Positions 8,932-49,046 are shown, counted from the stretch's first letter. The stretch: 64,000 nt of DNA from Candidatus Dormiibacterota bacterium (GCA_035936995.1 DASYVR010000025.1:7920-71919), one strand, 5' to 3'. Notes: generated by a model not told the origin, from the sequence alone. Numbers and translations: made by a program.

Positions 8932-9780
8932 CTACTGAAAGATCACGGCCATGTTGTTGAAGTCGGCGAAGTTCGCCTCGAAGAGCGTCTTGCTGACCCA
9001 GTATTGACTGGCATTGAGGACATCGTTGACCCGCACCTGGGTTGGTGAAACCCCGCTCAGGGTCACCGAGTGCTCGGCGTATGAGTAGCGGACCTGGGTC
9101 CCATCCCAGGCGGTCCAGGTGCCGAGTGGAACCCGAGCGAATCGTGTCTCGATCCAGACTTGAACGGGATGGCCCGCCGCGAGTTCGGCGTAGATCTGGC
9201 TGGGCGCGAAGCCCTCCCCACCAGTGGCGTTGGGGAGGCCGTGCGTACGGGCCAGTCCCAGGATGACCGGCCAGTAGACGCCGAAGCCGGTGGGCGCCCA
9301 ATCGCTTCCGTTGACGTAGCCGACGAAATTCGTATAGGGATTGCCCCAGCGCAGCACCGTGTGGTTGGCGCCCATCACGGGGAGCCGGGTGTCCGCGTAC
9401 TCGAGGGCAAACAATTCTGCCTGGCTGACGAAGTGCCCGTAATAGGCGAGCCCCTGTTGCAGCGCGGCGGTCTCACAGTCGAGCACCATGCTCTGCTGAT
9501 AGACCGGCACCGGGATGGTGACCGTGGCTGGTGTGGGCGCCGGTGTCGGTGTCGGTGTGGGTGTTGGAGTAGGTGTTGGTGTCGCCGTCGGTGTTGCGGT
9601 GGCGGTGGCTGCGGCAGAGCCCCCACCCTGCCCTCCCCCAGAGGGGGAGGGGGAGCTGAGAATTTCGGCCGCCACCGTACGACTCAGCACTGCGCCGGCA
9701 AGAGCCACCCCGCCAACGGTCAGAAACTGTCGTCTCGTCGCAAACCCGGACCGCATGTCAACCATGCTGGGCGTCATCAC
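8932..9780 (-). CDS. secreted (Tat signal) C39-like cysteine peptidase domain protein with a (TP)n linker
   Basis: RRQFLTVGG twin-arginine signal. PVYQQS..DCETAAL..LAYYG and AEHSVTLSG resemble the Cys/His context of Peptidase_C39_2. The linker contains a type-A repeat copy. Confidence 0.6.
   Translation of the reverse strand: MMTPSMVDMRSGFATRRQFLTVGGVALAGAVLSRTVAAEILSSPSPSGGGQGGGSAAATATATPTATPTPTPTPTPTPTPAPTPATVTIPVPVYQQSMVLDCETAALQQGLAYYGHFVSQAELFALEYADTRLPVMGANHTVLRWGNPYTNFVGYVNGSDWAPTGFGVYWPVILGLARTHGLPNATGGEGFAPSQIYAELAAGHPVQVWIETRFARVPLGTWTAWDGTQVRYSYAEHSVTLSGVSPTQVRVNDVLNASQYWVSKTLFEANFADFNNMAVIFQ
9528..9610 (-). repeat. imperfect hexanucleotide tandem repeat (GGTGTN)n encoding the (T/A)P linker of the C39-like protein
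   Basis: ggtgtgggcgccggtgtcggtgtcggtgtgggtgttggagtaggtgttggtgtcgcc..., translated as ATATATPTATPTPTPTPTPTPTPAPTPATV. Confidence 0.8.
9620..9653 (+). repeat. type-A hairpin repeat, copy 1 (inside the C39-like gene; read on the minus strand as SPSPSGGGQGGGS)
   Basis: CCCCCACCCTGCCCTCCCCCAGAGGGGGAGGGGG. 9-bp stem CCCTCCCCC/GGGGGAGGG with loop AGA. Confidence 0.9.
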
Positions 9781-9872
9781 CTTTCGAAAACATGACGCGC
9801 GCCGTCACGGAATCGCAAGGTACGCAGGTCGATGATGAGCGCACATCAAAGAACCATCAGAGGTGAATCGTT

Positions 9873-10730
9873 ATGGTCGCTCATCAATATTTCGATAACA
9901 AGTTTCAACCGGCAGCGCCCGCGGCACCGCCGACCTCGCCACCGCCAAAACGGTTTCGGCGCGGGCTGCTGATCGCGGTCGTCGCTCTGGCCGTCACCGG
10001 CGGGGCCGGCTCAGGTGCCGCGGCGGCCGCGCTCATCGACCACGGCACGCCAACCGCGTCAGCCGGCACCGTTGCGGGGACAACCTCGACGGTGACGAGC
10101 TCGACCTCGACAGCGTCGTCGACAACGGCGGAATCCGTTTACAAGCAGGATTCACCCGGCGTCGTGACCATTACAAGTGCGGTGGGCGCCGGTCAGGCGA
10201 CCGGTTCCGGGATCGTGCTCGATACCAAGGGTGACATCCTGACCAACGCCCACGTGATCGCCGGAGCCCAGAACATGCAGGTCACCTTCAGCACTGGACA
10301 AACCGTCAGTGCGACGCTGGTTGGCTCCAACACGAGTGCCGACCTGGCGGTGATTCGGGTTTCGGTCGCCGCGTCTGTGCTGCATCCGCTCACGCTCGGC
10401 AACTCCGCCACGGCGCAGGTGGGTGACAGCGTGTACGCCATCGGTTCACCATTCGGCCTCTCCGGATCGCTGACCGAAGGCATCGTGTCGAACCTCAGTC
10501 AGAGCGCGGCGGCGTCCGCCGGTGGCACCGCCACCGATCTCATTCAGACCGACGCCGCGATCAATCCAGGAAATTCCGGCGGGCCACTGGTCAACGCCCA
10601 GGGCCAGGTGATCGGCATCAATAACTCGATCGAGAGCCCGGTTGACGGCAACGTTGGCGTCGGCTTCGCGATCCCGATCAACCAGGTCAAACAAGTCCTG
10701 TCATCGCTCGAAGGCGGTTCGAACGTATGA
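9873..10730 (+). CDS. membrane-anchored trypsin-like serine protease (S1C/HtrA-like, no PDZ)
   Basis: Catalytic triad contexts TNAHVI, DLAVIRV and GNSGGPL. N-terminal TM segment. Confidence 0.8.
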   Translation: MVAHQYFDNKFQPAAPAAPPTSPPPKRFRRGLLIAVVALAVTGGAGSGAAAAALIDHGTPTASAGTVAGTTSTVTSSTSTASSTTAESVYKQDSPGVVTITSAVGAGQATGSGIVLDTKGDILTNAHVIAGAQNMQVTFSTGQTVSATLVGSNTSADLAVIRVSVAASVLHPLTLGNSATAQVGDSVYAIGSPFGLSGSLTEGIVSNLSQSAAASAGGTATDLIQTDAAINPGNSGGPLVNAQGQVIGINNSIESPVDGNVGVGFAIPINQVKQVLSSLEGGSNV

Positions 10731-11247: not shown

Positions 11248-11508
11248 ATGAGCAACCTCGGATGGTTTCGGGGTCCGGTGGCCAAGATGGTGATGGGCCT
11301 CGGTGTTGGGCTTGCGGGCGGGTTCGGCACGTTCGTCGTCGCGCACGCGGCGACGTCACCGTCGCCCACCGTGACCCCGGATGTCGGCGCGTCACCGTCG
11401 ACCAGTGCGTCGCCGTCGACTAGCGCATCACCGTCCACCACGACGCCGCCGTCGACCACGCCGAGCCCCGGCAGTGGCTCGGGCACCATGAACTGCCCGA
11501 ACATGTAG
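11248..11508 (+). CDS. small secreted Ser/Pro/Thr-rich protein
   Basis: SD AGGGAGGTGA at 11231-11240. Signal-peptide-like N-terminus ending AHA-A. Three tandem ASPST(S/T) units. Track ORF 11185.. trimmed. Confidence 0.45.
   Translation: MSNLGWFRGPVAKMVMGLGVGLAGGFGTFVVAHAATSPSPTVTPDVGASPSTSASPSTSASPSTTTPPSTTPSPGSGSGTMNCPNM
11389..11442 (+). repeat. three tandem 18-nt units encoding ASPSTS/ASPSTS/ASPSTT
   Basis: gcgtcaccgtcgaccagt / gcgtcgccgtcgactagc / gcatcaccgtccaccacg. Confidence 0.8.
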
Positions 11509-14973: not shown

Positions 14974-14996
14974 CGCGCCTCCTCCTCACGCGGGAA

Positions 14997-15023
14997 ATCC
15001 CGCGACCCTAACGTCTCGATTGT
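14997..15023 (+). repeat. type-B hairpin repeat (intergenic, between pobA and the ALDH gene)
   Basis: CACGCGGGAAATCCCGCGACCCTAACG. Stem CGCGGGA/TCCCGCG followed by the ACCCTAAC module. Confidence 0.85.
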
Positions 15024-15038: not shown

Positions 15039-16229
15039 CTAGGCGCGTTCGAAACCGACGTAGTTTTCCGCCAGGGTCGTCGCCGCCGCCTGAGACGTCG
15101 TGATGTAGCGCAGGTAGGAGAGTCGCAGCTTGTGCTCGAAGGGATCGCCTGCCGGGTCGCGATGGAGCAGCGCCGTCATCCACGCCGAGAAGTGCTCGGC
15201 GCGCCAAACCCGCCGCAGGCACAGGCCCGAGTAGCGGTCGAGCAGGTCATGCGACTTCGATCGATACCATGCCGTTAGAGCCTCCGCGAGCACCTTGACG
15301 TCGGCGAGCGCGAGGTTCATGCCCTTGGCCCCAGTCGCCGGGACGATGTGGGCGGCATCGCCGGCGAGGAAGAGGCGGCCGCGCTGCATCGGCTCTGTGA
15401 CCATGCTTCGCATGGGCGTGATGCCGTCCTCGATGATCTCACCGGGTTGGAGCTTCGGCTCAGCGAGGCGAAGGCGGAGCTCGTTCCAGATTCGCTGTTC
15501 CGGCCAGGCGTCCATCGTCTCGTCGGCGTCGACCTGGAGGTAGAGGCGACTGATCTCGGGCGATCGCATGCTGTGCAGCGCGAAGCCGCGCTCGTGGTAC
15601 GCGTATACGAGCTCGTCGGAAGCCGGCGGCGTGTTCGCCAGGATGCCGAGCCACGCAAAGGGGTAGGTCCGCTCGTAGACGCGTGGGCCTCCACCCTGAC
15701 CCACTCTCGCAAGCGGGGGAGGGAATGAAATAGCGGCGCGGGCGATGCCGTGCGAGCCGTCGCAGCCCGCCACGAACTCGCATTGGAGGGTTGCCGGTTC
15801 GCCGTTGCGGCGGTAGGCGATGCGGGGATGGTCATCCTCGATACCTTCGATGGCCGTTGCCTCGGCCTCGAACCAGATCTGACCGCCGTCCGCAAGGCGT
15901 TGCTGGATCAGATCCTTGACGACCTCCTGCTGGCCGTAGACGGTGATGCCCTTGCCGGTCAGCTGTCGGAAGTCGATGCGGTGCTCCTCCCCGGCGAAGC
16001 GAAGCTTGATGCCATCGTGCACGAGGCCCTCGCGGGTCATGCGGCCACCGACGCCGCTCGATGTCAGCAGATCTGCCGATCCCTGTTCGAGCACCCCGGC
16101 GCGGATCCGCCGCTCGACGTACTCTCGGCTGCGCGTTTCCAGCACGACGGATTCGATGCCCTGACGGTGCAGGAGATGGGAGAGCATGAGCCCGGCCGGG
16201 CCCGCCCCGATGATGCCGACGTGGGTCAT
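15039..16229 (-). CDS. pobA: 4-hydroxybenzoate 3-monooxygenase
   Basis: Collinear with Pseudomonas PobA as I recall it (GIIGAGPAGL, RIRAGVLEQG, CDGSHGI, LFLAGDAAHIVPATGAKGMNLA, ENYVG). Carries a repeat-derived insertion of about 10 aa. Confidence 0.9.
   Translation of the reverse strand: MTHVGIIGAGPAGLMLSHLLHRQGIESVVLETRSREYVERRIRAGVLEQGSADLLTSSGVGGRMTREGLVHDGIKLRFAGEEHRIDFRQLTGKGITVYGQQEVVKDLIQQRLADGGQIWFEAEATAIEGIEDDHPRIAYRRNGEPATLQCEFVAGCDGSHGIARAAISFPPPLARVGQGGGPRVYERTYPFAWLGILANTPPASDELVYAYHERGFALHSMRSPEISRLYLQVDADETMDAWPEQRIWNELRLRLAEPKLQPGEIIEDGITPMRSMVTEPMQRGRLFLAGDAAHIVPATGAKGMNLALADVKVLAEALTAWYRSKSHDLLDRYSGLCLRRVWRAEHFSAWMTALLHRDPAGDPFEHKLRLSYLRYITTSQAAATTLAENYVGFERA
15688..15723 (+). 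repeat. type-A repeat, degenerate copy inside pobA
   Basis: CCTCCACCCTGACCCACTCTCGCAAGCGGGGGAGGG. It keeps the CCACCCTGACC flank and the GGGGGAGGG arm; the left arm has decayed. Confidence 0.7.
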
Positions 16230-16720
16230 CCGGCGTCGGCATGTTCGACGTTGCGCCCGCCCGGATCTGCCTGGCGCTCCTTCCTCAGGCTTTCATCAGC
16301 GTCCACCACCAGGTTCAGCATGCGGAGCAATTCGGCCTGCTCGCACTCCGATAGCACCGACACGAGCAGCCGGTTCATGCGAGCTGCCTTTGGAATCAGG
16401 CGGTCGGTGATGCGCAGGCCGAGCGGTGTCAGGCGGAGGAGGTTGCGTCGGGCGTCCCGCGGATCGCGAAAGCGCTGTACCAGGCCGCGGGCGGTGAGCC
16501 GGGCGGCGACTTCGGCCGTGGTCGAGCGGTCGAGCGAGACCCTTTCGCCGAGCGTCTTCTGGTCGATGTTCTTTTCCGCCCGGAGCGCGTACAGCACCGC
16601 GAACTGGGGCGAGGTCACCTCGGGCGAGACCTCGGCGTTCCAGAGCCAGTAATGGACCTGCTGGGCGCGACGGATCAGGTGACCGGGATGGCGGCGCAGG
16701 TCTTCATGCGAGGTTGACAT
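16226..16720 (-). CDS. MarR-family transcriptional regulator (candidate PcaV-like regulator of the pob/pca genes)
   Basis: wHTH pattern (TSPQFAVLYAL ... QKTLGERVSLDRSTTAEVAARLTARGLV). ATGA overlap with pobA. Divergent from the pca operon. Confidence 0.85.
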   Translation of the reverse strand: MSTSHEDLRRHPGHLIRRAQQVHYWLWNAEVSPEVTSPQFAVLYALRAEKNIDQKTLGERVSLDRSTTAEVAARLTARGLVQRFRDPRDARRNLLRLTPLGLRITDRLIPKAARMNRLLVSVLSECEQAELLRMLNLVVDADESLRKERQADPGGRNVEHADAG

Positions 16721-16788
16721 GGGCCGGTTCTAAAACTATAGTCCGTGTACTGACGAATTTGAACCCCTTACAGGGAGGAGAAGCGGAC
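16721..16788. promoter_or_regulatory. divergent promoter/operator region between marR-pobA and the ABC-pca operon
   Basis: The only non-coding gap in the locus and locally AT-rich. Contains the 8-bp palindrome ACTATAGT (16735-16742) and the SD GGGAGGAG (16773-16780). Confidence 0.35.
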
Positions 16789-18117
16789 ATGGCCGACCAA
16801 GGGTTGTCGTTCGAGAGGCGAATCAGCCGTCGGGAGGTCTTAAAGACGATCGGAGGGGGCGCCCTGATGCTCGGCTCGGCCGACCTGCTGGCCGCGTGCG
16901 GCGAGATCAAGGGTTCGAGCACGACCACCAGCGGCACGATCGTGATCGGCTACGTCAGCCCGCAGACCGGCGCGCTGGCCGGATTTGCGTCCGGCGACAA
17001 CTACGTACTCAGCCAGGTGAGGGGCACGAGTACCTACAAGAATGGGTTCAAGCTGGGCAGCAAGACCTACGACGTAAAGCTTGTGGTCAAGGACACGCAG
17101 TCGAGTCCCGATCGCGCCTCACAGGTGGCCCACGAGCTGATCCTGACGGACAAAGCCGACCTCGTCCTCACATCCTCGACCCCGGAGACCACCAACCCGG
17201 TGGCCGACGCGTGCGAGGCGAACGGCATCCCGTGCGTCTCCACGATCGTGCCGTGGGAAGCCTGGTTTTTCGCTCGTGGCGGGAAGCCCGGGACCAGCTT
17301 CAACTTCACGACCATGTTCTTCTTCGGCATGCAGCAGTTCGGCGAGTGCTTCATCCCGATGTGGGATCGGATGAACACCAACAAGGTGGTCGCCTTCACC
17401 TACCCCAATGATGCCGACGGCAACGCCTTCCGCGACAATAAGACGGGCCTCGAGTTCTATTCGGCGCAAGCGAGCTACCACAATGTCGACGGTGGGGCCT
17501 ACCCCGACGGGACCACCGACTACAACAGCATGATCGCCAACTTCAAGAGCAAGGGCGCGCAGCTCTTCACCAACGCCCCCATCCCGCCCGACTTCAACAC
17601 GATGTGGAAGCAGGCGTCGGTGGCCGGTTTCAAGCCGAAGCTGGCGACGGTGGCCAAGGTCCTGTTGTTTCCGGCGGATACCGAAGCCATCGGCGACCTG
17701 GTCAACAACGTCGCGACCGATGCCTGGTGGACGCCATACCATCCCTACACCTCGTCGCTCACCGGCCAGACCTGTAAACAGTTCGCTGACGCCTTTGAGT
17801 CATCCACCGGCAAGCAATGGGTGCAAAGCATCGGGTCGGTTCACTCACTCTTCGAGATCGCCCATAAGGCGTTCACCGCCGTCGACGATCCGCACAACCA
17901 CACCGCGGTCGCCACGCAGCTCAAGAGCATGAACTACACGGGAATCAGCGGTCCGCTCGACTTCACCAAGGGGCCGGTTCCGGGTGTGGCGATCCAGAAG
18001 CCGGTCGGCGTGCAATGGAAGAAGGGCACCAAGTTCCCATACAGCATGGTCGTGGTGGACAACAGCGCGAACAAGAACGTTCCCGTAAACGGAGACCTCG
18101 TCCCAACCAATCCATGA
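16789..18117 (+). CDS. ABC transporter substrate-binding lipoprotein (LivJ/Peripla_BP_6-like; probable aromatic-acid binding)
   Basis: SD GGGAGGAG at 16773-16780. Tat motif SRREVLK plus lipobox LLAAC. Track ORF 16714.. trimmed. Confidence 0.85.
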   Translation: MADQGLSFERRISRREVLKTIGGGALMLGSADLLAACGEIKGSSTTTSGTIVIGYVSPQTGALAGFASGDNYVLSQVRGTSTYKNGFKLGSKTYDVKLVVKDTQSSPDRASQVAHELILTDKADLVLTSSTPETTNPVADACEANGIPCVSTIVPWEAWFFARGGKPGTSFNFTTMFFFGMQQFGECFIPMWDRMNTNKVVAFTYPNDADGNAFRDNKTGLEFYSAQASYHNVDGGAYPDGTTDYNSMIANFKSKGAQLFTNAPIPPDFNTMWKQASVAGFKPKLATVAKVLLFPADTEAIGDLVNNVATDAWWTPYHPYTSSLTGQTCKQFADAFESSTGKQWVQSIGSVHSLFEIAHKAFTAVDDPHNHTAVATQLKSMNYTGISGPLDFTKGPVPGVAIQKPVGVQWKKGTKFPYSMVVVDNSANKNVPVNGDLVPTNP

Positions 18118-18851
18118 CCGCGGAGGCGGCCCTTCTCGAGCTGGCCAGCGTCAGCAAGCGGTTCGGCCGGATCACGGTCGCCGACAGCCTGTCGCTGCGC
18201 TTTAAGGCTGGGGAGACGGTCGGGATCGTCGGGCCGAACGGCGCCGGGAAGAGCACGCTGTTTGCGATGATCGCCGGCGACCTGAAGCCGGATACGGGTG
18301 ACGTGCGCTTCGATGGGCGCTCAGTCCTTAAGCTCGACCCCGCTACTCGGTGTCGCATGGGGATCGCGCGGACCTACCAGGTGCCACGTCCATTCGAGAA
18401 CATGACCGTCTTCGAGAACCTGCTGGTGGCGGCCTATCGCGGCGGCCAGCTTTCCCGACTTCAGGGATACACGGTGGCGGCGCAGATCCTCGAAGAGACC
18501 GGACTGTCGCAGGATGCGAACCGTCCGGCCGGACGCCTCGGCCTGCTGCACCGTAAACGCCTCGAGCTGGCCCGCGGGCTGGCGACACAACCGCGCATCC
18601 TGCTGCTCGATGAGGTCGCCGGCGGCCTGACGGACCCGGAAGTGGCGGAGCTGGTCGAGATCGTCGAGCAGGTGCGGCAGCGATCGGTGGGCATCGTCTG
18701 GGTAGAGCATGTCGTGCACGCGCTGACCCGCGCCGTCAGCCGCATCATCTGCCTCGCCGGCGGTCGGCTGATCGCGGAGGGCGACCCGCAAGAGGTGCTT
18801 GCCAACCCGGAGGTGAAGGAGGTGTACCTGGGAGTCGACATCCATGCTTGA
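18114..18851 (+). CDS. ABC transporter ATP-binding protein (LivG-like)
   Basis: Walker A GPNGAGKST and LLLDEVAGGL. ATGA overlap with the SBP gene. Confidence 0.85.
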   Translation: MTAEAALLELASVSKRFGRITVADSLSLRFKAGETVGIVGPNGAGKSTLFAMIAGDLKPDTGDVRFDGRSVLKLDPATRCRMGIARTYQVPRPFENMTVFENLLVAAYRGGQLSRLQGYTVAAQILEETGLSQDANRPAGRLGLLHRKRLELARGLATQPRILLLDEVAGGLTDPEVAELVEIVEQVRQRSVGIVWVEHVVHALTRAVSRIICLAGGRLIAEGDPQEVLANPEVKEVYLGVDIHA

Positions 18852-19566
18852 GGTTCGCGACCTGACCGTCCGGCATGGATACCTGCAGGCGCTCACGGAT
18901 ATCAGCCTCACGGTGTCGCCGGGCGAGACTCTCGCCATCATCGGCGCCAACGGCGCGGGCAAGTCGACGCTGCTCCGCTCGGTCGTCGGCCTCCATCAGC
19001 CAAGCGCCGGCTCGATCCTGCTCGATGGCCGGGACATCACCGCGCTGCCGACGCATGCCCGGGTCCGCGAGGGGATCGCGCTCGTTCCCGAAGGGCGCCG
19101 ATTGTTTCCGTCGCTCAGCGTCGAAGAGAACCTGCTGGTCGGCCGATCATCGGGACGCCCCGGTTCGTGGAGCGTGGACCGGGTCTTTCAACTCTTTCCG
19201 TGGATGGGCGACCGGCGCCGCGAGCCGACTGTTCACCTATCGGGCGGCGAGCAACAGGCGGTTGCCATTGGCCGCGCCCTGATGGCGAACCCCCGCGTGC
19301 TCCTTCTCGACGAGCTGTCGCTCGGCCTGGCGCCCACCATGGTGCGACGCATCTACGGGGTCCTGCCGGAGCTGGTCCAACAGGGCATGGCGGTCTTACT
19401 GGTCGAGCAGGACGTCGGCCAGGCGATGCGGGTCGCCAATCGGTTTCAATGCCTGCTCGAGGGTCGCACCACACTCGAGGGCAAACCTGCGGATACGACG
19501 ACGGCAAAGATCGAAGCCGCCTACTTCGGCTTGGCGGGCCGTACCGGCCCAGGGAGCGCCGCATGA
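18844..19566 (+). CDS. ABC transporter ATP-binding protein (LivF-like)
   Basis: Walker A GANGAGKST, signature LSGGEQQ and LLLDELSLGL. 8-nt overlap with the upstream gene. Confidence 0.85.
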   Translation: MLEVRDLTVRHGYLQALTDISLTVSPGETLAIIGANGAGKSTLLRSVVGLHQPSAGSILLDGRDITALPTHARVREGIALVPEGRRLFPSLSVEENLLVGRSSGRPGSWSVDRVFQLFPWMGDRRREPTVHLSGGEQQAVAIGRALMANPRVLLLDELSLGLAPTMVRRIYGVLPELVQQGMAVLLVEQDVGQAMRVANRFQCLLEGRTTLEGKPADTTTAKIEAAYFGLAGRTGPGSAA

Positions 19567-20432
19567 ACTGGGTCAACGCCATCGTCCAGGGGATCCTCCT
19601 CGGCGGCCTCTACGCGCTCTTTGCCTGCGGGTTGTCCTTGCTCTTCGGCGTCGTCCGCGTCGTCAACCTGGCCCACGGCGACTTTGCGGTGCTGGCCGCC
19701 TACCTGGCGCTGGTCGTGATCACGACAACGCACGTGCCCGCGCTGCTCACCTTTGTCATCGTGGCGCCGCTGTTCGCCATCTTCGGCTACGGCGTCCAGC
19801 GGCTGATCATCCAGAAGAGCCTGGACGTCTCTCCGCTGACGACCTTGCTCGTGACCTTCGGGCTCTCCGTTGTCATCCAGAACGTCTTGCTGGTCACGGC
19901 ATCCGCCGACAGCCACTCGTTCGATCTCGGCAGCCTGATCTCGGCGTCGTTGCGCGTGACGCCCGAGCTCTCCATCGGCTACGTGCCCCTGATGATCTTC
20001 CTGACGGCGATCGTCGTCCTCGTCGGTCTGCAACTCTTTCTCTCGCGCACTGCGATGGGCCGCGCGATCCGGGCGGCGGCCGATGACCAGGAGGCGTCGT
20101 CGATCGCAGGCGTGAACACGCGCCATGTCTTCGGGATCGCCGCGGCGATTGCTTTTGCCACCGTCGCCCTCGCCGGCCTGGCGCTGGGAAGCTCTTCGTC
20201 GTTCGATCCGAGCGCCGGCCCAGCGCGACTGATCTTCGCCTTCGAGGCGGTCATCATCGGCGGCGTGGGCTCGCTCTGGGGGACCCTCCTCGGCGGCATC
20301 ATCCTTGGCGTGGCGCAGGCGATCGGCGCCCAGATCGATCCGAGCGGTGGCGTGCTCGCCGGCCACCTCGTGTTCCTCGCGGTGCTCGCGCTGCGCCCGC
20401 AGGGTTTGATCCGGGCTCGGCTGGCCGTATGA
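19563..20432 (+). CDS. branched-chain-type ABC permease (LivH-like)
   Basis: N-terminus MNWVNAIVQGILLGGLYALFACGLSLLFG is typical of LivH. ATGA overlaps on both sides. Confidence 0.85.
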   Translation: MNWVNAIVQGILLGGLYALFACGLSLLFGVVRVVNLAHGDFAVLAAYLALVVITTTHVPALLTFVIVAPLFAIFGYGVQRLIIQKSLDVSPLTTLLVTFGLSVVIQNVLLVTASADSHSFDLGSLISASLRVTPELSIGYVPLMIFLTAIVVLVGLQLFLSRTAMGRAIRAAADDQEASSIAGVNTRHVFGIAAAIAFATVALAGLALGSSSSFDPSAGPARLIFAFEAVIIGGVGSLWGTLLGGIILGVAQAIGAQIDPSGGVLAGHLVFLAVLALRPQGLIRARLAV

Positions 20433-21487
20433 TGGCGCCCATCGCGGCCGGCACAGCGGCGGGGACCGGGCCCGTGCGGGTGACGCGCTCCCGCCGATCG
20501 GCGCTGTGGGGGCTGATCGGCGCGGCGGTCGCGGTCATCCTGCTCGCGACCTTTCCCTACGTCGTCTACGCGGATGTGACGGATCTCCTCGTCAACGCCT
20601 TCATCCTGCTGGTCCTGGCCAGCATGTGGAATTTGCTCGCCGGCTACTGCGGGCTGATCTCGGTCGGGCAGCAGGCCTATGTCGGCGTGGGCGCCTACAC
20701 CGTTCTGCTGCTGGGGCAAAACGGCATCAACCCCTTCCTGGGGATCCCGGTCGCGGTCGTAGTCGCGGCCGCGATTGCGGTACCGGTCTCCTTCCTGGTT
20801 TTCCGCCTTCGAGCGGAGTACTTCGCGATCGGCACCTGGGTGGTGGCGGAGGTGTTTTTCCTTGTCCTCATCCGGTTTCGCTCGCTGGGCGGCGGCACCG
20901 GGACCAGCCTTCCGGGGCTGGCGCTGATCGACCCGGTGTTTCGTCAGGCGTTGACCTACTGGAGCGCGCTCGCCGTAGCCGCGGCGGCGCTGCTCGCCAC
21001 CTACCTGCTCCTCTCCAGCCGGATGGGATTGGACCTGACGGCGATCCGAGACAACGAGGTGGCAGCGCGCAGCGCCGGTGTCCGCGTCACGTCGGCGCAG
21101 CGGATCGTCTACGTCGTGTCCGCCGGCGGCTGTGGCGCCGGCGGCGCGCTGCTGATCATCAGCCAGCTCAATGTGCTGGCCAGCGCGATCTTCAGCGTCT
21201 CATGGTCGGCGAAGATGATCTTCATCGCGCTGATCGGAGGCGTGGGCAGCATCGAGGGACCGATCGTCGGCACCGCCATCTACACCGTCATCCAACAGAC
21301 GCTGGCCCAGTTCGGCGCCTGGTACCTCATCTTGCTTGGGTCGCTGGCCGTGGTCGTCGCCATGTTCTTGCCGAAAGGGATCTGGGGCCTGATCAGCAGC
21401 CGCCTGCATCTGCAAGTCTTTCCAGTCGGCTACTGGCTGCACAACCCCCACCCTGCCCTTCCCGAGAGGGGGAGGGAAAAATCATGA
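20429..21487 (+). CDS. branched-chain-type ABC permease (LivM-like); the C-terminal tail runs through a type-A repeat
   Basis: Polytopic, with LivM-type motifs (GQQAYVGVGAY, RDNEVAARSAGV). Last residues NPHPALPERGREKS are encoded by the repeat. Confidence 0.85.
   Translation: MMAPIAAGTAAGTGPVRVTRSRRSALWGLIGAAVAVILLATFPYVVYADVTDLLVNAFILLVLASMWNLLAGYCGLISVGQQAYVGVGAYTVLLLGQNGINPFLGIPVAVVVAAAIAVPVSFLVFRLRAEYFAIGTWVVAEVFFLVLIRFRSLGGGTGTSLPGLALIDPVFRQALTYWSALAVAAAALLATYLLLSSRMGLDLTAIRDNEVAARSAGVRVTSAQRIVYVVSAGGCGAGGALLIISQLNVLASAIFSVSWSAKMIFIALIGGVGSIEGPIVGTAIYTVIQQTLAQFGAWYLILLGSLAVVVAMFLPKGIWGLISSRLHLQVFPVGYWLHNPHPALPERGREKS
21445..21476 (+). repeat. type-A repeat at the livM-like 3' end, just upstream of pcaH
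   Basis: CCCCCACCCTGCCCTTCCCGAGAGGGGGAGGG, followed by AAAAATC and ATG(pcaH). Confidence 0.9.
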
Positions 21488-22167
21488 GCGAAGACGAGCG
21501 CGAACCCCCATACCTCTACCCCGATTACGTCGGGACGCGACTGCGCGCACCGGCGAAGCCGCTGGTCCACCTTCCCGAGGGGTTTCATGATTTCCCCGCG
21601 CCGCTGTTTCCGCGGACCATCGCGGACCTCGATCACGACCTGACCCGCCGGCACTCAGGCGAGCCGCTCGGCGAAAGGATCATCGTCACCGGCCGCGTGC
21701 TCGACAGCGATGGGCGACCGCTGCGGAACACGATCGTGGAGGTCTGGCAGGCGAACGCAGCCGGCCGCTACCTTGACCAGGATGACCAGCACCCGGCGCC
21801 GCTCGACCCCAACTTCAGTGGAGCGGGTCGCTGCCTGACCGACGGCGACGGTCGCTATCGCTTCATCACGATCAAGCCCGGCGCATATCCGTGGAAGAAC
21901 CATCGCAACGCGTGGCGACCGGCGCATATCCACTTCTCGCTCTTCGGCAGCCAGTTCCGCAGCCGGCTGGTGACCCAGATGTATTTCCCCGGCGACCCCT
22001 TGATGCCGCGCGATCCCATCCTCCAGTCGATCCCGGACCAGGCCGGCCGCGAGCGCCTGGTGTCGCACTTCGATCCCGAGACGACCGAGTCGGAATGGGC
22101 GCTCGGGTACCGATGGGACGTAGTGCTGCGCGGCCGCGCCGCGACGCCTTTCGAGGACGAGGGATGA
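21484..22167 (+). CDS. pcaH: protocatechuate 3,4-dioxygenase beta subunit
   Basis: IVEVWQANAAGRY, RPAHIHFSLFG and YFPGDP. ATGA overlap with the permease gene. Track ORF 20506.. is over-extended. Confidence 0.9.
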   Translation: MSEDEREPPYLYPDYVGTRLRAPAKPLVHLPEGFHDFPAPLFPRTIADLDHDLTRRHSGEPLGERIIVTGRVLDSDGRPLRNTIVEVWQANAAGRYLDQDDQHPAPLDPNFSGAGRCLTDGDGRYRFITIKPGAYPWKNHRNAWRPAHIHFSLFGSQFRSRLVTQMYFPGDPLMPRDPILQSIPDQAGRERLVSHFDPETTESEWALGYRWDVVLRGRAATPFEDEG

Positions 22168-31289: not shown

Positions 31290-31364
31290 ACGAGCCGCTG
31301 GTCTTAGGTCCGGCGGGCCGGGTCGTCGCCTCTCAGGCGGTCGGGGGCCCGCCCGGTTGCTTGC

Positions 31365-35650: not shown

Positions 35651-35692
35651 GTCAGGGTAGGCCCCACCCTAACCTCCCCCAGAGGGGGAGGG
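35651..35692 (+). repeat. type-A repeat (intergenic, between cydA and cvpA) preceded by an inverted ACCCTGAC module
   Basis: GTCAGGGTAGGCCCCACCCTAACCTCCCCCAGAGGGGGAGGG. Confidence 0.9.
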
Positions 35693-35698
35693 AAATTG

Positions 35699-40799: not shown

Positions 40800-41543
40800 T
40801 CATCGGGCTGACCGGGCTCGCGCTCGTGACGGGCGTGGTCGGGGGTGCGCACCGCGTGGCGCGGCGCTGGCTGCGACCGGCCGCCTGACGCCCGCTGAGA
40901 GCAGACTGAGGCGAGCGCCTGACTCCAGCACGTCGAGCGCGCGGTTGACCAGCTCCACGAGGCCGTGGCGACCGTTGGTTCGCATCCACTCGAGACTGGC
41001 CTCGAGCATCGCGCCAGTCACGACGCGCGCCGTGACGCGCAACTCGAAGTCATCGGGGCGGCGGCCGGTCCGTTCAGCCAGTAACTGCGCGATCAGCACC
41101 TGCGTGCGCTCGGCTTCGTCCCAAAGTCGTGCCCGCAGCTCCGGGACCTCGAGGAACAACCGGCCACGGGCGAGGATCAGGTGCTCGTCACGCTGAAACA
41201 CCGCCGCCAAGCCCTCGAGCACCTGGCGGAGGCCGACATTCAGCGGTTCGTCCTTGGGGCGCTCGAGGAACATCCGGATCGCCATCGGGTCATAGGCGTC
41301 GTAAAGGACCACGTCCTCCTTGGTCGGAAAATAATTGAAGAACGTGCTCGGTGAGATCTCAACGGCGGCGGCGATCTGCTCGACCGTCGTCTGCTCGTAG
41401 CCTTCCTTTTCGAAGAGCCGCAGCGCCGTCCGCTGGATCAACTCCCGCGTCTTTTGTTTCTTACGCTCGCGCAGCCCGATGGTCCCAGCCGGCTGACCAT
41501 CGGGCCGCGGCCGTTTTGCAGGCTTAACTGAGGCCATCGTCAC
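40800..41543 (-). CDS. TetR/AcrR-family transcriptional regulator
   Basis: HTH EGYEQTTVEQIAAAVEISPSTFFNYFPTKEDVV. ATGA overlap with the upstream MFS gene. Confidence 0.85.
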   Translation of the reverse strand: MTMASVKPAKRPRPDGQPAGTIGLRERKKQKTRELIQRTALRLFEKEGYEQTTVEQIAAAVEISPSTFFNYFPTKEDVVLYDAYDPMAIRMFLERPKDEPLNVGLRQVLEGLAAVFQRDEHLILARGRLFLEVPELRARLWDEAERTQVLIAQLLAERTGRRPDDFELRVTARVVTGAMLEASLEWMRTNGRHGLVELVNRALDVLESGARLSLLSAGVRRPVAASAAPRGAHPRPRPSRARARSAR

Positions 41544-43093
41544 ACGTCTCCGGCATCGATGGGCGAGACCCGGGCGGGGAGGAAGACCGCGATCGCGATG
41601 GCTGCCGCCAGCACCAACGCGGCGCTAACGAGCATCACCTCCGTCATCCCCTGCGTGTAGGCCTCGTTGGCAGCACGCGCCAGCGCGGCACCGATCGGCG
41701 CCGGGAAATGCGCGGCGACCGCATGAGCGCCGGCCACGCTACCCAGCGCCACCTCACGAGCACCGGACGGCAATGCCGCGACCTGCGGTCCGATCTGTGC
41801 CTGGTAGGCGTTATTGAGGATGCTGCCGAGGATGGCGACGCCGAACGTTGCGGCGATCTGTTGCAGGGCCCTGGTCAGCGCCGAGCCCGCGCCGGTCTGT
41901 GAGGGCGGCAGCGTCCCGAGGATAATGTCGAGCGTCGTTGGGAGGGCAATCCCCAGGCCAATGCCGATGACCGCCAGCGCCGCTGCCACCGGGCCATACC
42001 CGGCGTCGGCGCCGATCCGGGAGAAACCCAGCAACCCGGCGGCGGTCACGACCAATCCGGCAGATACGCCGATCCTGGCACCCAGCCTGGCGGCCAGGAC
42101 GTTGCCGATGACGGCACCGACGATCACGCCGGCGATCAGCGGTAGCAGTTTGATCCCGGTCGCCTGCGCGTCGTTACCCAGGACGATCTGGATGTAGGGC
42201 GTGAGGATGAACATCACGCCGAAGAGGGCGAAGCCGGTCACGACGAAGGCCATCGTCGCCCAGGTGAAGCCACGGTTCCGGAAGTTGCGGAGGTCGACGA
42301 AGGGCGACGGATGGCGCAGGTCCCAGACGATAAACGTGGCCAGGATCAGCGCGCCGCCGACGATCCCGACCAGGACCTGTGGGTCGGTCCAACCATGGAT
42401 CGGTTGCTCGATGACACCGTAGACGAGCGCCGTGACACCAATCACGGCGAGTAACCCGCCGACCAGGTCGAAGGGCCGCGGCTGCGGGTCCTTGCTCTCC
42501 GGCACCAGCAACCAGACGCCGACCAGCGCAATGACGACGACCGGCGCGTTGATCAGGAAGACGGATCCCCAGGCGTAGTGGGTCAGCAGCCAGCCGGCGA
42601 CCAGCGGGCCGAGCGGGAGGCCGAGGAAGGCGCCCGCGGCCGCGGCGCTGACGGCGCGGGGACGTTCCTTTTCGGTAAACATGCTGGGCAGGATGGAGAG
42701 GGATAGTGGGAGGATGAGCGCCGCGCCGACGCCCATCAGGGCGCGCATCGCGATCAGGCTGGTTGCGGTTGTCACCTGGCTGGCGATCACCGACGAGATA
42801 CCGAAGATGGCGAGCCCGACGAGCAGCAGTCGCTTACGGCCGTAACGGTCGCCAAGGACACCGCCGGGAAGCAACAGACCGCCGAGTGCCAGTGTGTAGG
42901 AGGCCGCGATCCACTGCAGATCGCTGGTCGTGGCGCCCAGCTTCGACGAAAGGGTAGGGAGGGCGGTGATCAGTACGGTCGAGTCGAGGCCGATGACGAG
43001 GCCGCTCACGACCAGAGCGGCGAGCGCCCACCAGCGCCCGGCTCGCCCATGCGCGGAAGGTTCGATATCGATTCTCCGGATGTCGACGGTCAT
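41540..43093 (-). CDS. MFS efflux transporter, DHA2 (EmrB/QacA, 14-TM) family
   Basis: GDRYGRKRLLL motif, about 14 hydrophobic segments, SD GGAGGTG upstream. Confidence 0.9.
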   Translation of the reverse strand: MTVDIRRIDIEPSAHGRAGRWWALAALVVSGLVIGLDSTVLITALPTLSSKLGATTSDLQWIAASYTLALGGLLLPGGVLGDRYGRKRLLLVGLAIFGISSVIASQVTTATSLIAMRALMGVGAALILPLSLSILPSMFTEKERPRAVSAAAAGAFLGLPLGPLVAGWLLTHYAWGSVFLINAPVVVIALVGVWLLVPESKDPQPRPFDLVGGLLAVIGVTALVYGVIEQPIHGWTDPQVLVGIVGGALILATFIVWDLRHPSPFVDLRNFRNRGFTWATMAFVVTGFALFGVMFILTPYIQIVLGNDAQATGIKLLPLIAGVIVGAVIGNVLAARLGARIGVSAGLVVTAAGLLGFSRIGADAGYGPVAAALAVIGIGLGIALPTTLDIILGTLPPSQTGAGSALTRALQQIAATFGVAILGSILNNAYQAQIGPQVAALPSGAREVALGSVAGAHAVAAHFPAPIGAALARAANEAYTQGMTEVMLVSAALVLAAAIAIAVFLPARVSPIDAGDV

Positions 43094-43181: not shown

Positions 43182-43637
43182 TTGCCTACGATTGACGCAA
43201 TGAGCCCGATGACGATGCCCAAGCCCAGCGAGCAGGCCAAGGCCGCCTTCCAGAAACTGGTGCCGGCAGACCCGGCGGTCGCGAGCCGGCCGATGTTCGG
43301 CAACCTGGCCGCGTTCGTCAATGGCAACATGTTCTGCGGTCTGTTCGGCGAGGACCTGTTCGTGCGCGTGTCCGACGCCGACCAGGCGAAGATCCGCAAG
43401 CAAGGTGGCAGGGCCTTCGAGCCGATGCCGGGACGGGCGATGACAGGCTACGTGGTGGTGCCGGCCGGCTGGCAGAAGAAGCCGGATGCGACCCGGGCCT
43501 GGGTGATCACGGCGCTGTCCTGGTCACGCGCCTTACCGGCAAAGGCGTCAAGGACCGCGAAGAAGGCGGGAACGAAAAAAGCTACCGCGACGAAATCCGT
43601 CGCGAAAAAGAGCGCCCCGGCTCGTCGTCCGCGCTAA
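43182..43637 (+). CDS. TfoX N-terminal-domain protein with a Lys/Ala-rich basic tail
   Basis: RPMFGNLAAFVNGNMFCGLFGEDLFVRV is TfoX_N-like. Tail is AKASRTAKKAGTKKATATKSVAKKSAPARRPR. Confidence 0.6.
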   Translation: MPTIDAMSPMTMPKPSEQAKAAFQKLVPADPAVASRPMFGNLAAFVNGNMFCGLFGEDLFVRVSDADQAKIRKQGGRAFEPMPGRAMTGYVVVPAGWQKKPDATRAWVITALSWSRALPAKASRTAKKAGTKKATATKSVAKKSAPARRPR

Positions 43638-44095
43638 ACGGGGCGGAGCAAGCCGAGTGGGATGACGCGTTTGGTCTTCTTTTCGTAGCCGGCGTAGCGG
43701 GGCATCGAGGCGACGGCCTTGTCCCAGAGCCGCCGACGCTCGGCGGGATCCGTGACCGGCTCCATCCGGACGTTGATGAGTCGGTCGTTGACCTGGATGC
43801 TTGCCTTGGGATTCGCGACCAGGTTAAGCCACCAGGCCGGGTCGAAGTCGGACCCGCCCGCCGAACCGATCACGAAGAATCCATCGCCCTCCGGCACGCC
43901 ATTTACTGGCACCGTCTGCGGCCGGCCCGTCTTCCGACCGGTCGTCGTGAGCAAGAGCACCTGCAGCTTTCCCATCCGGCGGGCCAGACCACGCCGATAC
44001 ATGAACCGGTGGATCGCGCCGCCCGCGCGAAGCATCGAGCGACTCATGCCACCGGGGCGTTTGGTCGGGGTGTTGCTAGCGGCGTTCTTATTCAC
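43634..44095 (-). CDS. deazaflavin(F420)-dependent nitroreductase family protein (DDN type), paralogue 2
   Basis: LLLTTTGRKTGRPQTVPV ... DPAWWLNLVANP ... RVIPLGLL. Confidence 0.8.
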   Translation of the reverse strand: MNKNAASNTPTKRPGGMSRSMLRAGGAIHRFMYRRGLARRMGKLQVLLLTTTGRKTGRPQTVPVNGVPEGDGFFVIGSAGGSDFDPAWWLNLVANPKASIQVNDRLINVRMEPVTDPAERRRLWDKAVASMPRYAGYEKKTKRVIPLGLLRPV

Positions 44096-44120: not shown

Positions 44121-45086
44121 CTAAGCGAGCTCCTTGCGCCACGGTGGGTCGGCGCCCGCGCGGGTGCAGGTGAGGGATGCGACCAGGCAGGCAAACTCGA
44201 GAGCGGCACGGAGCTCGTCGCGCTCGAGCCGCAGATCCCGGCTAAGCCGGCCATGGTCGTGCAGCCACGCCAACAGCGCTGCGCCGAACGCGTCGCCGGC
44301 CCCGATCGTGTCGACGACCTGGACCACCGGCGCTGGGACCCGTACTTCGGTGTTCGCGCTCATGGCAAAGGCGCCCTCAGCCCCCAGGGTCACGACCACC
44401 AGCCGGGGCCCGCGCGCCAAGAGGGCACGGGCGGCCGCCAATCGGTCGAGCTCCGGAAACAGCCAGTCGACGTCGGCATCGCTGGCCTTGACGATGGTGC
44501 TCTGGGCGATGATCCGATCCAACCGTGCTCGGTAACCGGCCGCGCCGTTCACCATCGGCAGACGGATATTCGGGTCGACCATCACGAGCCGCTCGGTGTG
44601 CTCGCGGTCGACGAGCGCCGCGATGGTGGTCGCGATCGGTTCGAGCACGAGGCCGAGGGTGCCCACGTGCAGCGCGGCGACCGTTGGGTCCAGTGACGCG
44701 GGAAGCATCTCGGGGGTCAGGTTCGGGGCCGACGTGCCGTCGATTACGAACCGGTACGCGGCGTGGCCGTCCCGGTCGACTTCGGCGATGCCGAGCGTGG
44801 TGGGCTCGGGACCGAGGCTGGTGAGGGAGAGGTCGCCCCCATCCGCCGCCAGCAGGTCCCGGAGCTGCCGGCCGAGCGCGTCGGTCGACAGGCGCCCGAG
44901 AAACTGAGTGGGAACGCCCAGCCGGGCCAGGGCGCGCGCGGCATTGAAGGGTCCGCCGCCGGGCGAGTCAGCACCTCCCACCGCGCCCCCACCCTGCCCT
45001 CCCCCAGAGGGGGAGGAAAAATGCCCCCGCAAGGCGGGAGGGAGAGAAATCCGGTCGATGAGGGCCTCACCGCACACGATTACCAT
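44121..45086 (-). CDS. PfkB-family sugar kinase (fructokinase-like) with a repeat-derived insertion near the N-terminus (alternative start 45104)
   Basis: GEALID ... PGGGPFNAARALARLG and the C-terminal DTIGAGDAF motif. Confidence 0.8.
   Translation of the reverse strand: MVIVCGEALIDRISLPPALRGHFSSPSGGGQGGGAVGGADSPGGGPFNAARALARLGVPTQFLGRLSTDALGRQLRDLLAADGGDLSLTSLGPEPTTLGIAEVDRDGHAAYRFVIDGTSAPNLTPEMLPASLDPTVAALHVGTLGLVLEPIATTIAALVDREHTERLVMVDPNIRLPMVNGAAGYRARLDRIIAQSTIVKASDADVDWLFPELDRLAAARALLARGPRLVVVTLGAEGAFAMSANTEVRVPAPVVQVVDTIGAGDAFGAALLAWLHDHGRLSRDLRLERDELRAALEFACLVASLTCTRAGADPPWRKELA
44986..45043 (+). repeat. type-A repeat plus a second hairpin (inside pfkB)
   Basis: CCCCCACCCTGCCCTCCCCCAGAGGGGGAGGAAAAATGCCCCCGCAAGGCGGGAGGG. 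Confidence 0.9.
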
Positions 45087-48293: not shown

Positions 48294-48299
48294 GGCGTC

Positions 48300-49046
48300 A
48301 TGCAGACCCCCCACCCTGACCCTCCCCACGCGGGAAATCCCGCGACCCTGACAACCGGAGGGGGGAAGGGAAACAGAATTAGGGCGCTGGTCTTCGACTT
48401 CGATGGCCTGATTGTCGACACCGAAGTCCCGATCTTCCGCGTCTGGCAACGAATCTACCGGGAGCGCGGCCAGGAGCTGCCGCTCGACCGGTGGCTGACC
48501 ACCATCGGCACCGCCTCGGCTCCATTCGATCCCGCGCGGGAGCTTGGGGTGCGGACCGGCGAGAAGATCGACCAGCGGGCGCTCAAGGCCCTCGAGCGCC
48601 TTTACTATCAGGAGGCAACCGCCATGCAGCAGTTGCTTCCCGGGGTCGCCGATTACCTGGCGGTCGCCGACGAGCTCGGGCTCAAGACCGCTGTGGCGTC
48701 CAGTTCATCGCGCAAGTGGGTGATGGAGCATCTCGATCGCTTTGGCATTGGCGGCAGCTTCGGTGCCATCGTCTGTCGAGAAGACGTGAAGCGGACGAAG
48801 CCGGATCCGGGACTGTACCGGACGGCGCTGCAGCGGCTCGAGGTGCGGCCGGTCGAGGCGATCGCGCTCGAGGACTCGAGCAATGGCATCCAGGCCGCGA
48901 AGGCGGCCGGGCTCTTCTGCGTGGCGGTGCCGAATCCGCTGACCGCCGACCTGGATCTCACGGAGGCTGACCTGAGCCTGCTATCGCTCGAGGCGATGTC
49001 GTTGCGCGACCTGCTCAACGAGGCGCAGCGGAGGCCAGAGCCGTGA
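48300..49046 (+). CDS. HAD-superfamily hydrolase (beta-phosphoglucomutase/phosphatase subfamily); the first ~27 codons are encoded by a composite repeat
   Basis: Motif I is FDFDGLIVDTE. It is preceded by MQTPHPDPPHAGNPATLTTGGGKGNRIRA. No alternative start lies between the ATG and motif I. Confidence 0.8.
   Translation: MQTPHPDPPHAGNPATLTTGGGKGNRIRALVFDFDGLIVDTEVPIFRVWQRIYRERGQELPLDRWLTTIGTASAPFDPARELGVRTGEKIDQRALKALERLYYQEATAMQQLLPGVADYLAVADELGLKTAVASSSSRKWVMEHLDRFGIGGSFGAIVCREDVKRTKPDPGLYRTALQRLEVRPVEAIALEDSSNGIQAAKAAGLFCVAVPNPLTADLDLTEADLSLLSLEAMSLRDLLNEAQRRPEP
48307..48370 (+). repeat. composite repeat: a type-B unit nested in the loop of a type-A unit (5' end of the HAD gene)
   Basis: CCCCCCACCCTGACCCTCCCC[ACGCGGGAAATCCCGCGACCCTGACAACC]GGAGGGGGGAAGGG. 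Confidence 0.85.

Follow-up and report, generated by a model that had tools for sequence, protein, structure and literature searches.

The stretch of DNA analyzed here, a 64,000-nucleotide (nt) window from a Candidatus Dormiibacterota bacterium (GCA_035936995.1 DASYVR010000025.1:7920-71919; G+C ~66%), carries short, G/C-rich hairpin repeats scattered among its genes, and the question it raises is what kind of element these repeats are and by what route they spread. The initial annotation of the window distinguished two hairpin types, A and B, and compared them with repetitive extragenic palindromic (REP) sequences and small transposable elements bounded by inverted repeats (MITEs). Our analysis points to a different affiliation. 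We consider it likely that type A is the Dormibacterota-lineage version of the BoxC/PIT/TMECO class of intrastrand-triplex repeats, that is, a structure-defined, non-autonomous element that would spread via single-stranded DNA. The class itself is known; new here are a sequence variant in a new phylum, frequent in-frame translation, a single orientation throughout the window and a nested second element. The window shares 90.6% nucleotide identity over 1.75 kb with a metagenome-assembled genome (MAG) labelled 'Candidatus Dormiibacterota', and soil MAGs bearing the labels Chloroflexi CF_27 and CF_63 match it at 79-81%, so it derives from a Dormibacterota-like bacterium of soil. One of its proteins, looked up by exact sequence, was matched by a single 3.1-kb Logan contig of the same strain and nothing else.

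Architecture and covariation of the type A repeat

The dispersed repeat family is real. The hairpin pattern CTCCCCCNNNGGGGGAG, allowing up to two mismatches, matched the window 7 times against 0.97 expected, a count reached in 0 of 100 shuffles, and the octamer ACCCTRAC matched 9 times against 1.98 expected. A direct-repeat search followed by alignment gave the type A consensus CCCCCACCCTG(N)CCCTCCCCC-AGA-GGGGGAGGG. A covariance model built from 76 type A copies and run unfiltered over the whole window, on both strands, recovered all ten of the loci annotated initially and no others, every one of them on the + strand, with starts at 9618, 15686, 21443, 24408, 28079, 30364, 31254, 35659 and 44984 (E 8e-11 to 5e-5) and at 48306 (E 0.003). 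Additional full-length copies were absent from either strand of the window by this model, the − strand matches being just the palindromic stems of the ten known loci. The annotated positions proved accurate to within 2 nt except for two placed too far upstream: 31250 is a C-run ahead of a third strand that begins at 31256, and 35651 is the GTCAGGGT octamer, with the third strand beginning at 35661. As had been described, the best copies have a 9-bp stem and the family ranges from intact to decayed, with stem pairing of 9/9 at 9620, 8/9 at 44986 and 31256, 8/8 at 35661 and 4-7/9 elsewhere, the worst being 28081 (4/9). The copies lie 0.9-12 kb apart at irregular intervals and form no array, in agreement with the earlier verdict that they are not CRISPR. 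Rfam contains no family matching the type A elements at gathering score or E <= 1.

Read along the + strand, type A consists of a third strand, a 2-3 nt loop, a C-stem, a 3-6 nt loop and a G-stem, laid out in the window as CCCCCACCC-TG-CCCTCCCCC-AGA-GGGGGAGGG; the unit is ~35-40 nt long and comprises three 9-nt segments. The G-rich strand, which is the − strand in the window, reads 5'-CCCTCCCCC-(3-6 nt)-GGGGGAGGG-(2-3 nt)-GGGTGGGGG-3'. All ten window copies can be segmented in this way into C-stem, G-stem and second G-stem; their first loops measure 2-6 nt and their second loops 2-3 nt. Only ~35 nt are conserved, the flanks and loops being variable and the stems constant. The module CCCCCACCC is the mirror image of the type A C-stem, and ACCCTGAC corresponds to the end of the third segment, the 2-3 nt loop and the first C of the stem. 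ACCCTRAC is indeed shared by both types, as annotated, with type B carrying the same string, but in type A it is the end of the third 9-nt mirror segment plus the adjoining loop rather than a mere tag.

An exact 29-30-nt pattern scan of one genome per species identified at least 119 loci elsewhere, so the family does not end with the window. Among the matches listed are Dormibacterota, Chloroflexota/Dehalococcoidia, Beta-, Alpha- and Gammaproteobacteria, relatives of Geobacter, Acidobacteriota, Planctomycetota, Verrucomicrobiota, Nitrospirota and others. The locus L081 holds four copies at 1353-6298 within a molybdopterin oxidoreductase operon, two of them in an FdhE-like open reading frame (ORF) and one at a Fer4/NrfD gene junction. 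In 2.9 million viral contigs (IMG/VR), neither the window-type pattern nor type B was found; the E. coli-type variant CCCTCACCC-N3-CCCTCTCCC-N3-6-GGGAGAGGG, by contrast, turned up in the same database on at least 120 contigs of viruses or prophages (loci L202-L281 and beyond).

The third segment provides a comparative test of structure. Under the triad rule of the purine motif, it should mirror the purine stem, with C-G*G triads and T-A*T or T-A*A triads and no more than one mismatch. We took each perfect 9-bp pyrimidine/purine hairpin found in the window or in 120 loci representing at least 10 phyla and compared both of its flanks with this rule. All 167 perfect CCCTCCCCC hairpins have a mirror segment matching at 8/9 positions or better on exactly one side, and 43 of the 167 had been picked without using the mirror segment. 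Where the stem differs, the mirror differs with it: CCCTCTCCC carries CCCTCACCC among 15 hairpins (13 at 9/9, 3 at 8/9), CCTTCCCCC carries CCCCCATCC (8/8), CCTCCCCCC carries CCCCCCTCC (7/7), and the single hairpin with stem CCCCCTCCC carries CCCTCCCCC (1/1). At least six stem variants, each with its matching mirror segment, occur across the loci, and the non-mirror flank of each hairpin scores only 1-6/9.

The pattern of substitution also bears on which strand and which motif are involved. At T positions the third segment has T or A; both are permitted only in the purine motif on the G-rich strand, which favors that motif and strand, and the frequent A disfavors a pyrimidine-motif (RNA-capable) triplex on the C-rich strand, so that the G-rich DNA strand alone fits all cases. 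The third segment mirrors the C-stem instead of repeating it directly, which disfavors an alternative Watson-Crick hairpin; a G-quadruplex is disfavored by the CCTTCCCCC and CCTCCCCCC variants, which obey the triad rule without four G3 tracts. As far as sequence comparison goes, the covariation of the three segments agrees with a purine-motif triplex formed by the G-rich strand and does not agree with a G-quadruplex, an alternative Watson-Crick pairing or a protein motif. The fold energy of type A does not differ from that of dinucleotide shuffles (z −1.6 to +1.0) and is uninformative because any sequence with a C-run and a G-run pairs well; it is covariation, not energy, that supports the structure.

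A repeat with this architecture is known from E. coli. Holder, Hartig et al. 2015 (PMC4666352) identify BoxC, the PIT (potential intrastrand triplex) elements of Hoyne, Maher et al. 2000 and TMECO as one and the same E. coli repeat. TMECO was defined as CCCTCNCCC-N3-6-GGGNGAGGG-N3-GGGNGAGGG and reported in 3610 copies from 262 proteobacterial genomes; nuclear magnetic resonance (NMR) of the E. coli sequence gave 18 imino signals, identifying a purine-motif intrastrand triplex and not a G-quadruplex, and such purine-motif (class II) triplexes form only in single-stranded DNA, not in RNA (PMC4666352). In the same study, the repeats showed no association with mobile elements, and the loci bearing the motif were unusually variable. 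The hrpB-mrcB BoxC copy of E. coli, CCCTCACCC-TAA-CCCTCTCCC-TCAA-GGGAGAGGG, has the layout of type A in the window. Type A and BoxC alike are built from three G/C-rich 9-nt segments that include one or two T·A positions, the first loop being 3-6 nt long, the second ~3 nt, and the third segment mirroring the purine stem. Copies of each are numerous and scattered, code for no protein and are linked to no known transposase, and in both the loci are prone to small deletions or rearrangements and include inverted or tandem pairs. The stems are G5AG3 / C3TC5 in type A versus G3AGAG3 / C3TCTC3 in BoxC, a coordinated change in all three segments.

In the fold suggested by the covariation, the first two segments of the G-rich strand would form a Watson-Crick hairpin and the third would fold back into its major groove, where reverse-Hoogsteen contacts would build nine triads (C-G*G, with T-A*T or T-A*A) and hence a purine-motif (class II) triplex. 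Copies would probably be made and removed while the G-rich strand is single-stranded, and the candidate routes of spread are replication stalling provoked by the structure, with template switching or slippage, or a structure-specific enzyme acting in trans. Selection may then retain the copies whose new site is a gene junction or a permissive loop of a protein. Classical cut-and-paste transposition of type A looks unlikely.

Turnover, orientation and the type B element

Related genomes show the element coming and going. The comparison of filled and empty orthologous sites proposed with the initial annotation became possible through a metagenome scan with the AMP-binding gene of the window (24455-25912), which yielded 80 syntenic loci at 54-88% protein identity; both allele states are present at five type A sites and one type B site. 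At the 9618 site, the copy is kept in L006, and L044 has a hairpin remnant only. The 15686 insertion is present in four orthologues (L129, L143, L152, L154) and absent from L148. The 28079 site is empty in L146 and L165 and holds a variant element in L167. At the junction of the ABC permease gene and pcaH, empty alleles have a plain ATGA stop/start overlap (L125, L130, L148, L150, L191, L195 and others), and filled alleles occur in L080, L136, L154, L161 and L152, the last with three tandem units; L152 and the single-unit L154 have flanks that are 97% identical. Each of the L152 and L154 units has a AAAAATCGTGA tail, and the units are quite diverged from each other. At the junction of the carboxymuconolactone decarboxylase (CMD) and AMP-binding genes, the 44 alleles are empty in the majority of cases, the filled ones numbering about a dozen and differing in their loops; some filled alleles hold two units, L132 and L136 have type B nested in type A, and L197 lacks the element-bearing 47-nt segment between TCCTG direct repeats.

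Coding sites vary in the same manner. The Fe-ADH gene carries the element in the same protein loop as the window, in the opposite orientation, in L143, L176 and L195, and two units in L152. AMP-binding orthologues have in-frame copies at two loops, at about amino acid (aa) 170 in L130, L151, L167, L160, L163, L197, L136 and L146, where several versions occur, including an A+B composite in L136, and at about aa 127 in L164, L182 and L187, in both orientations; the AMP-binding gene of the window itself has neither insertion. No target-site duplications were found at the five filled/empty type A sites and the type B site, and no common target sequence at the empty sites; host/element microhomology is seen at two junctions, and type A excision looks imprecise from the filled/empty comparison. 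Thus, type A has been gained, lost, expanded and inverted at orthologous sites of related genomes, and it encodes nothing itself and is non-autonomous.

Orientation is strikingly uniform in the window, where the C-rich strand is on the + strand in 10/10 type A copies (p = 0.002). With the copies masked, the + strand has more G than C (skew +0.0155), and among 114 independent loci, 74 likewise have their C-rich strand on the strand with G>C (p = 0.002). The syntenic metagenome loci divide into 27 + and 8 −, many of these sites being orthologous and so not independent. Transcription alone does not account for the bias, as 3 of the 10 window copies run against the direction of the host or neighboring gene. 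Judged by this weak skew, the G-rich strand tends to be the template of the presumed leading strand. In E. coli, copies divide ~10 versus 13, counted from the positions and strands in Table 1 of Kaplan et al. 2016 (PMC5100583) relative to oriC and the terminus.

The second hairpin, type B, was also correctly recognized and consists of CGCGGGAAATCCCGCG followed by ACCCTRAC, with the extended consensus ACACGCGGGAAATCCCGCGACCCTGAC. Four units are present in the window. One, CGCGGGAAATCCCGCG plus ACCCTAAC, lies at 14989-15012 (+) in a 65-nt gap between two − strand genes, directly upstream of the Shine-Dalgarno site of an aldehyde dehydrogenase gene, and its site is empty in the orthologues L129, L143 and L148. 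Another, at 48329-48352 (+), is nested between the C-stem and the G-stem, in the loop region of a type A copy. The remaining two form a tandem pair at 34180-34229 (−; units 34207-34229 and 34180-34202) at the cydA/cydB junction, within the last ~17 codons of cydA (…RESRDPDDMRGIPPP*), whose product has a Pfam Cyt_bd_oxida_I domain ending at aa 428 of 453. Outside the window, ~10 units occur in related loci and one in a Limnocylindria MAG, either solo or inside type A, with the C-stem on one side and the G-stem on the other, the loci being unrelated; composites like that at 48307 recur at unrelated loci in L132, L136 (twice) and L062. The type B hairpin stands out from shuffles in fold energy (z −3.8 at 14989, −3.3 for the pair at 34180). 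Type B is a second, lineage-restricted small palindromic element, insertion-polymorphic independently of type A and recurrently nested in it. A triplex reading was tried for type B and rejected: the ACCCT tail mirrors TCCC of the 3' arm, but the fold-back third-strand register does not fit.

Gene context of the copies

The type A copies of the window are not mainly intergenic: by Pfam scans, orthologue alignments and translations, 6/10 copies are translated within ORFs, three internally (9618, 15686, 30364), two as C-terminal tails (21443, 24408) and one as an N-terminal extension (48307), and 4/10 are intergenic (28079, 31254, 35659, 44984). The most intact copy, at 9618-9656 (+; 9/9 pairs, 9/9 triads), with the C-rich strand on + and the putatively triplex-capable G-rich strand on −, lies in frame in the gene of a secreted protein (8932-9780, −), where it separates the Tat signal from a Pro/Thr linker and reads SPSPSGGGQGGG; the host is a secreted C39-like peptidase (Pfam Peptidase_C39_2 at aa 90-253). 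The decayed copy at 15686-15725 (+; 6/9 pairs, covariance-model E = 8e-6) is an in-frame 13-codon insertion (FPPPLARVGQGGG) in a pobA-like FAD_binding_3 monooxygenase gene (15039-16229, −; Pfam domain at aa 2-347). The copy at 30364-30402 (+; 6/9 pairs) is in frame in a gene for an Fe-ADH C-terminal domain (29644-30603, +) and reads GPHPALRPRGRE.

At gene ends, the copy at 21443-21481 (+; 7/9 pairs) forms the last 13 codons of an ABC permease gene (…NPHPALPERGREKS*); pcaH starts at 21484, and the G-stem of this copy provides its Shine-Dalgarno site 7 nt upstream. The copy at 24408-24447 (+; 7/9 pairs) encodes the C-terminal tail of carboxymuconolactone decarboxylase (…DPHPDPPPGGEGQPAE*), and 8 nt beyond it the AMP-binding gene begins with GTG. 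Both place GGAGG closely upstream of the next gene's start codon. The composite at 48307-48370 (+), with its type B unit, is read as an N-terminal extension of a HAD hydrolase (MQTPHPDPPHAGNPATLTTGGGKGNR…), ATG 48300 being the sole canonical start ahead of the DxD motif. Among the intergenic copies, the badly decayed one at 28079-28114 (+; 4/9 pairs, E = 5e-5) lies 30 nt upstream of a DinB/MDMPI-family gene (28145-28987, +), and that at 31254-31292 (+; 8/9 pairs, stem CCCTCTCCC paired with GGGGGAGGG) lies ~90 nt upstream of an MFS transporter gene (31383-32612, +). The copy at 35651-35697 (+; 8/8 pairs) is preceded by the inverted octamer GTCAGGGT at 35651-35658, just as annotated; it sits between two − strand genes and abuts the stop codon of a CvpA-like gene at 35699. 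The copy at 44984-45052 (+; 8/9 pairs) is followed by a degenerate, hairpin-only second unit at ~45021-45052 (GCCCCCGCAAGGCGGGAGGGAGAGAAATC) and occupies the divergent intergenic region between pfkB (−) and an aldo/keto reductase gene (+), with an in-frame ATG at 45019, 5 nt after GGAGG.

The same type A DNA is read in at least four frame/strand combinations, as PHPALPxRGRE, PHPDPPPGGEG, SPSPSGGGQGGG and FPPPLARVGQGGG, so its similarity is not that of a protein motif, the alternative that had been raised at the outset; the resemblance is in the DNA and extends to intergenic copies. The consensus is stop-free in all six frames, as are 41/51 Dormibacterota-like copies versus 40/73 from other taxa (Fisher p = 0.004), which lets type A survive in this lineage at gene junctions and in frame in permissive protein loops and tails. 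Ends of long ORFs fall within 20 nt of 17 and 22 of 124 copies on the two sides, compared with 4.9% for random positions. Automatic gene-context classing of 50 other loci with a codon model trained on the window was too noisy to be relied on, because the elements are stop-free and ORFs run through them. In its behavior, type A recalls the Rickettsia palindromic elements (RPE), which insert in frame in unrelated genes and are translated as an extra peptide (PMC10969869); such insertions are found here in the FAD monooxygenase, Fe-ADH and secreted peptidase genes and at two loops of the AMP-binding orthologues. The resemblance is behavioral only: RPEs are ~100-150 bp long, restricted to Rickettsia and code for a conserved peptide, whereas type A is 35-40 nt long, read in several frames on both strands and defined by its triplex-type architecture.

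Pfam identifies ordinary metabolic, transport and regulatory genes among the ~70 predicted proteins of the window. The interval 15039-26690 is a protocatechuate / beta-ketoadipate-type cluster (pobA-like monooxygenase, MarR regulator, branched-chain-type ABC uptake system, pcaH/pcaG, Lyase_1 cycloisomerase, CMD decarboxylase, AMP-binding ligase and alpha/beta hydrolase) with four type A copies and one type B unit in or adjoining it. Elsewhere, an 18-nt tandem repeat (GCGCGTCACCGTCGACCA, 3-4 copies, 79-82% identity) lies in or adjoins a weak ORF at 11387-11456. There are three paralogous F420H2-dependent quinone reductase genes (4543-4941, 43634-44095, 62152-62832) and two paralogous HisKA_3 histidine kinases, which share a 103-nt stretch at 75% identity (5483-5585 and 55364-55466). 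ARAGORN calls a tRNA-Ala(cgc) at 41676-41749 (−) inside an MFS transporter ORF (41540-43093); since Rfam reports none anywhere in the window, whether at gathering score or at E <= 1, this tRNA is probably a false positive.

Competing explanations and significance

Several observations weigh against assigning type A to the BoxC/PIT/TMECO class or against the mode of spread proposed for it, or set it apart from the E. coli repeat. The literal TMECO pattern is absent, the third segment being GGGTGGGGG in type A and GGGNGAGGG in TMECO (position 6 has G in place of A), and the second loop, N3 in TMECO, frequently measures just 2 nt, although the third-segment change is compensated in all three segments. 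The host is Dormibacterota-like, and TMECO was reported from Proteobacteria; 6/10 window copies are in ORFs, whereas BoxC in E. coli K-12 is always intergenic; a second element nests within type A, unlike BoxC; and the uniform orientation of the ten window copies has no counterpart in E. coli, where BoxC shows no strand bias. Within the window, the triads are 9/9 at 9620 and 8/9 at 31256 and 44986, the remaining copies being mostly decayed (2-7/9); with just four of the 10 copies at 8/9 or better, the majority could not fold. We infer triplex folding of type A from covariation combined with the published E. coli biophysics. The junctions have no consistent signature, and the flank tree, on which filled alleles are interspersed with empty ones, could be explained by strains recombining with each other in place of repeated insertion or loss. 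Finally, we infer the way type A spreads rather than observe it, the step that creates new copies being hypothetical.

A bolder version of the triplex reading, to which we give a distinctly lower probability, would make type A units members of a pan-bacterial class of mobile DNA defined by structure, in which the folded triplex itself is recognized and copied or inserted. The agent would then be a host or trans-acting enzyme, or triplex-induced template switching. Such a class would explain the three-segment covariation, the recurrence of the stems in at least 10 phyla without a linked transposase and the presence of both orientations in the same protein loops, and the Dormibacterota elements would constitute a steady source of new peptide segments in enzymes.

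One rival is the proposal that type A comprises REP/REPIN-type elements mobilized in trans by a REP-associated tyrosine transposase (RAYT, of the Y1/HUH type), or by an IS200/IS605-like single-strand transposase, encoded elsewhere in the genome, which we regard as improbable. Type A resembles REP sequences, bacterial interspersed mosaic elements (BIMEs) and REPINs in being short, GC-rich, hairpin-forming and non-autonomous, in numbering hundreds of copies and in lying typically at gene ends. It resembles IS200/IS605 elements, whose orientation bias is tied to replication and whose cleavage-site recognition involves base triples, in its hairpin, in an orientation linked to the direction of replication (10/10 in the window, 74/114 beyond) and in the absence of target-site duplications, which HUH enzymes do not leave. 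The nesting of type B, which at several unrelated loci occupies the single-stranded part of type A, its loop region, could be read in the same way. However, Pfam finds no transposase, integrase or HUH/Y1 enzyme among the window proteins, in keeping with the earlier observation, and no Y1 or other transposase in the four-copy cluster of L081; tblastn with E. coli RayT gave a best E of 1.5 in the 2.69 Mb of window and loci, a weak test. Type A has no conserved GTAG/CGTC tag, its 5' flank is variable, and the window contains no inverted doublets, all ten copies being co-oriented. REPs lack the mirror-repeat third segment and are species-specific in sequence, whereas type A stems recur across phyla; and IS200/IS605 differs from type A in having a TnpA, of which none was found here, and a cleavage tetranucleotide, of which none is evident, as well as in the imprecision of type A deletions. 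The lack of a mobile-element link for E. coli BoxC (PMC4666352) points the same way.

The E. coli counterpart has also been read as a G-quadruplex-hairpin-duplex switch, represented by the HPG1/HPG2 motifs (Kaplan et al. 2016, PMC5100583), which coincide in E. coli with BoxC and consist of GGGAGAGGGTTAGGGTGAGGG preceded by a C-rich arm. We doubt that type A is such a switch regulating neighboring genes. Its G-rich strand in the window has, as in HPG1/HPG2, four G-tracts and a complementary C-arm; G5-A-G3-CA-G3-T-G5 is a canonical four-tract G-quadruplex motif, its two leading tracts being able to pair with the C-stem as well, and the circular dichroism (CD) data for the E. coli relatives are cation-dependent (PMC5100583). 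Covariation does not back this reading, since type A variants lose the four G3 tracts and keep the triplex rule: the co-resident combinations CCTTCCCCC/GGGGGAAGG/GGATGGGGG and CCTCCCCCC/GGGGGGAGG/GGAGGGGGG obey it with only two G3+ tracts. The NMR signals of the E. coli sequence are those of a triplex (PMC4666352), and the copies have no fixed position or strand relative to genes, many being inside ORFs.

An equally doubtful account would place the function of type A in RNA, as a hairpin that masks or supplies a Shine-Dalgarno site, terminates transcription or stabilizes mRNA at gene ends. The G-stem GGGGGAGGG lies 5-8 nt upstream of the starts at 21484, 24455 and 45019, and ORF ends are enriched near copies, as noted above. 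Nevertheless, a start codon with a long ORF follows just 6 of 123 copies, compared with 9% at random positions, so a general role in supplying or masking ribosome-binding sites was rejected. Gene orientations are mixed, with the three opposing copies in the window; the mirror third segment is not explained by RNA pairing, and purine-motif triplexes do not form in RNA (PMC4666352); the hairpin has no following T-run, and Rfam returns no match. Finally, a classical MITE or a conserved protein motif seen as DNA, suggested by dispersed copies in all states of decay and by the proline/glycine-rich peptides that many ORF copies yield, has next to no probability and is refuted for the copies examined: type A has no terminal inverted repeats save the internal hairpin, so that, with no target-site duplication, tag or RAYT, neither MITE nor REP applies in the strict sense, and the variety of reading frames and the intergenic copies dispose of a protein motif.

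The assignment of type A to the BoxC/PIT/TMECO class matters beyond this window. Compensated change in three segments, over many stem variants and phyla, is comparative evidence that triplex geometry is the conserved feature, a covariation pattern that hairpin or G-quadruplex potential alone leaves unexplained. Type A elements in this lineage are regularly read as parts of enzymes and at the ends of proteins, which matters for gene annotation and protein evolution: ORF callers run through them, and strings such as 'PHPxLPxRGRE' and 'PSPSGGGQGGG' are repeat-derived, not homologous. Soil Dormibacterota populations, with their filled, empty, expanded, inverted and composite alleles, offer a natural data set on insertion and loss. 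BoxC/PIT/TMECO has been known since the 1990s with its function and spread unexplained, and the variation described here makes that problem more tractable.

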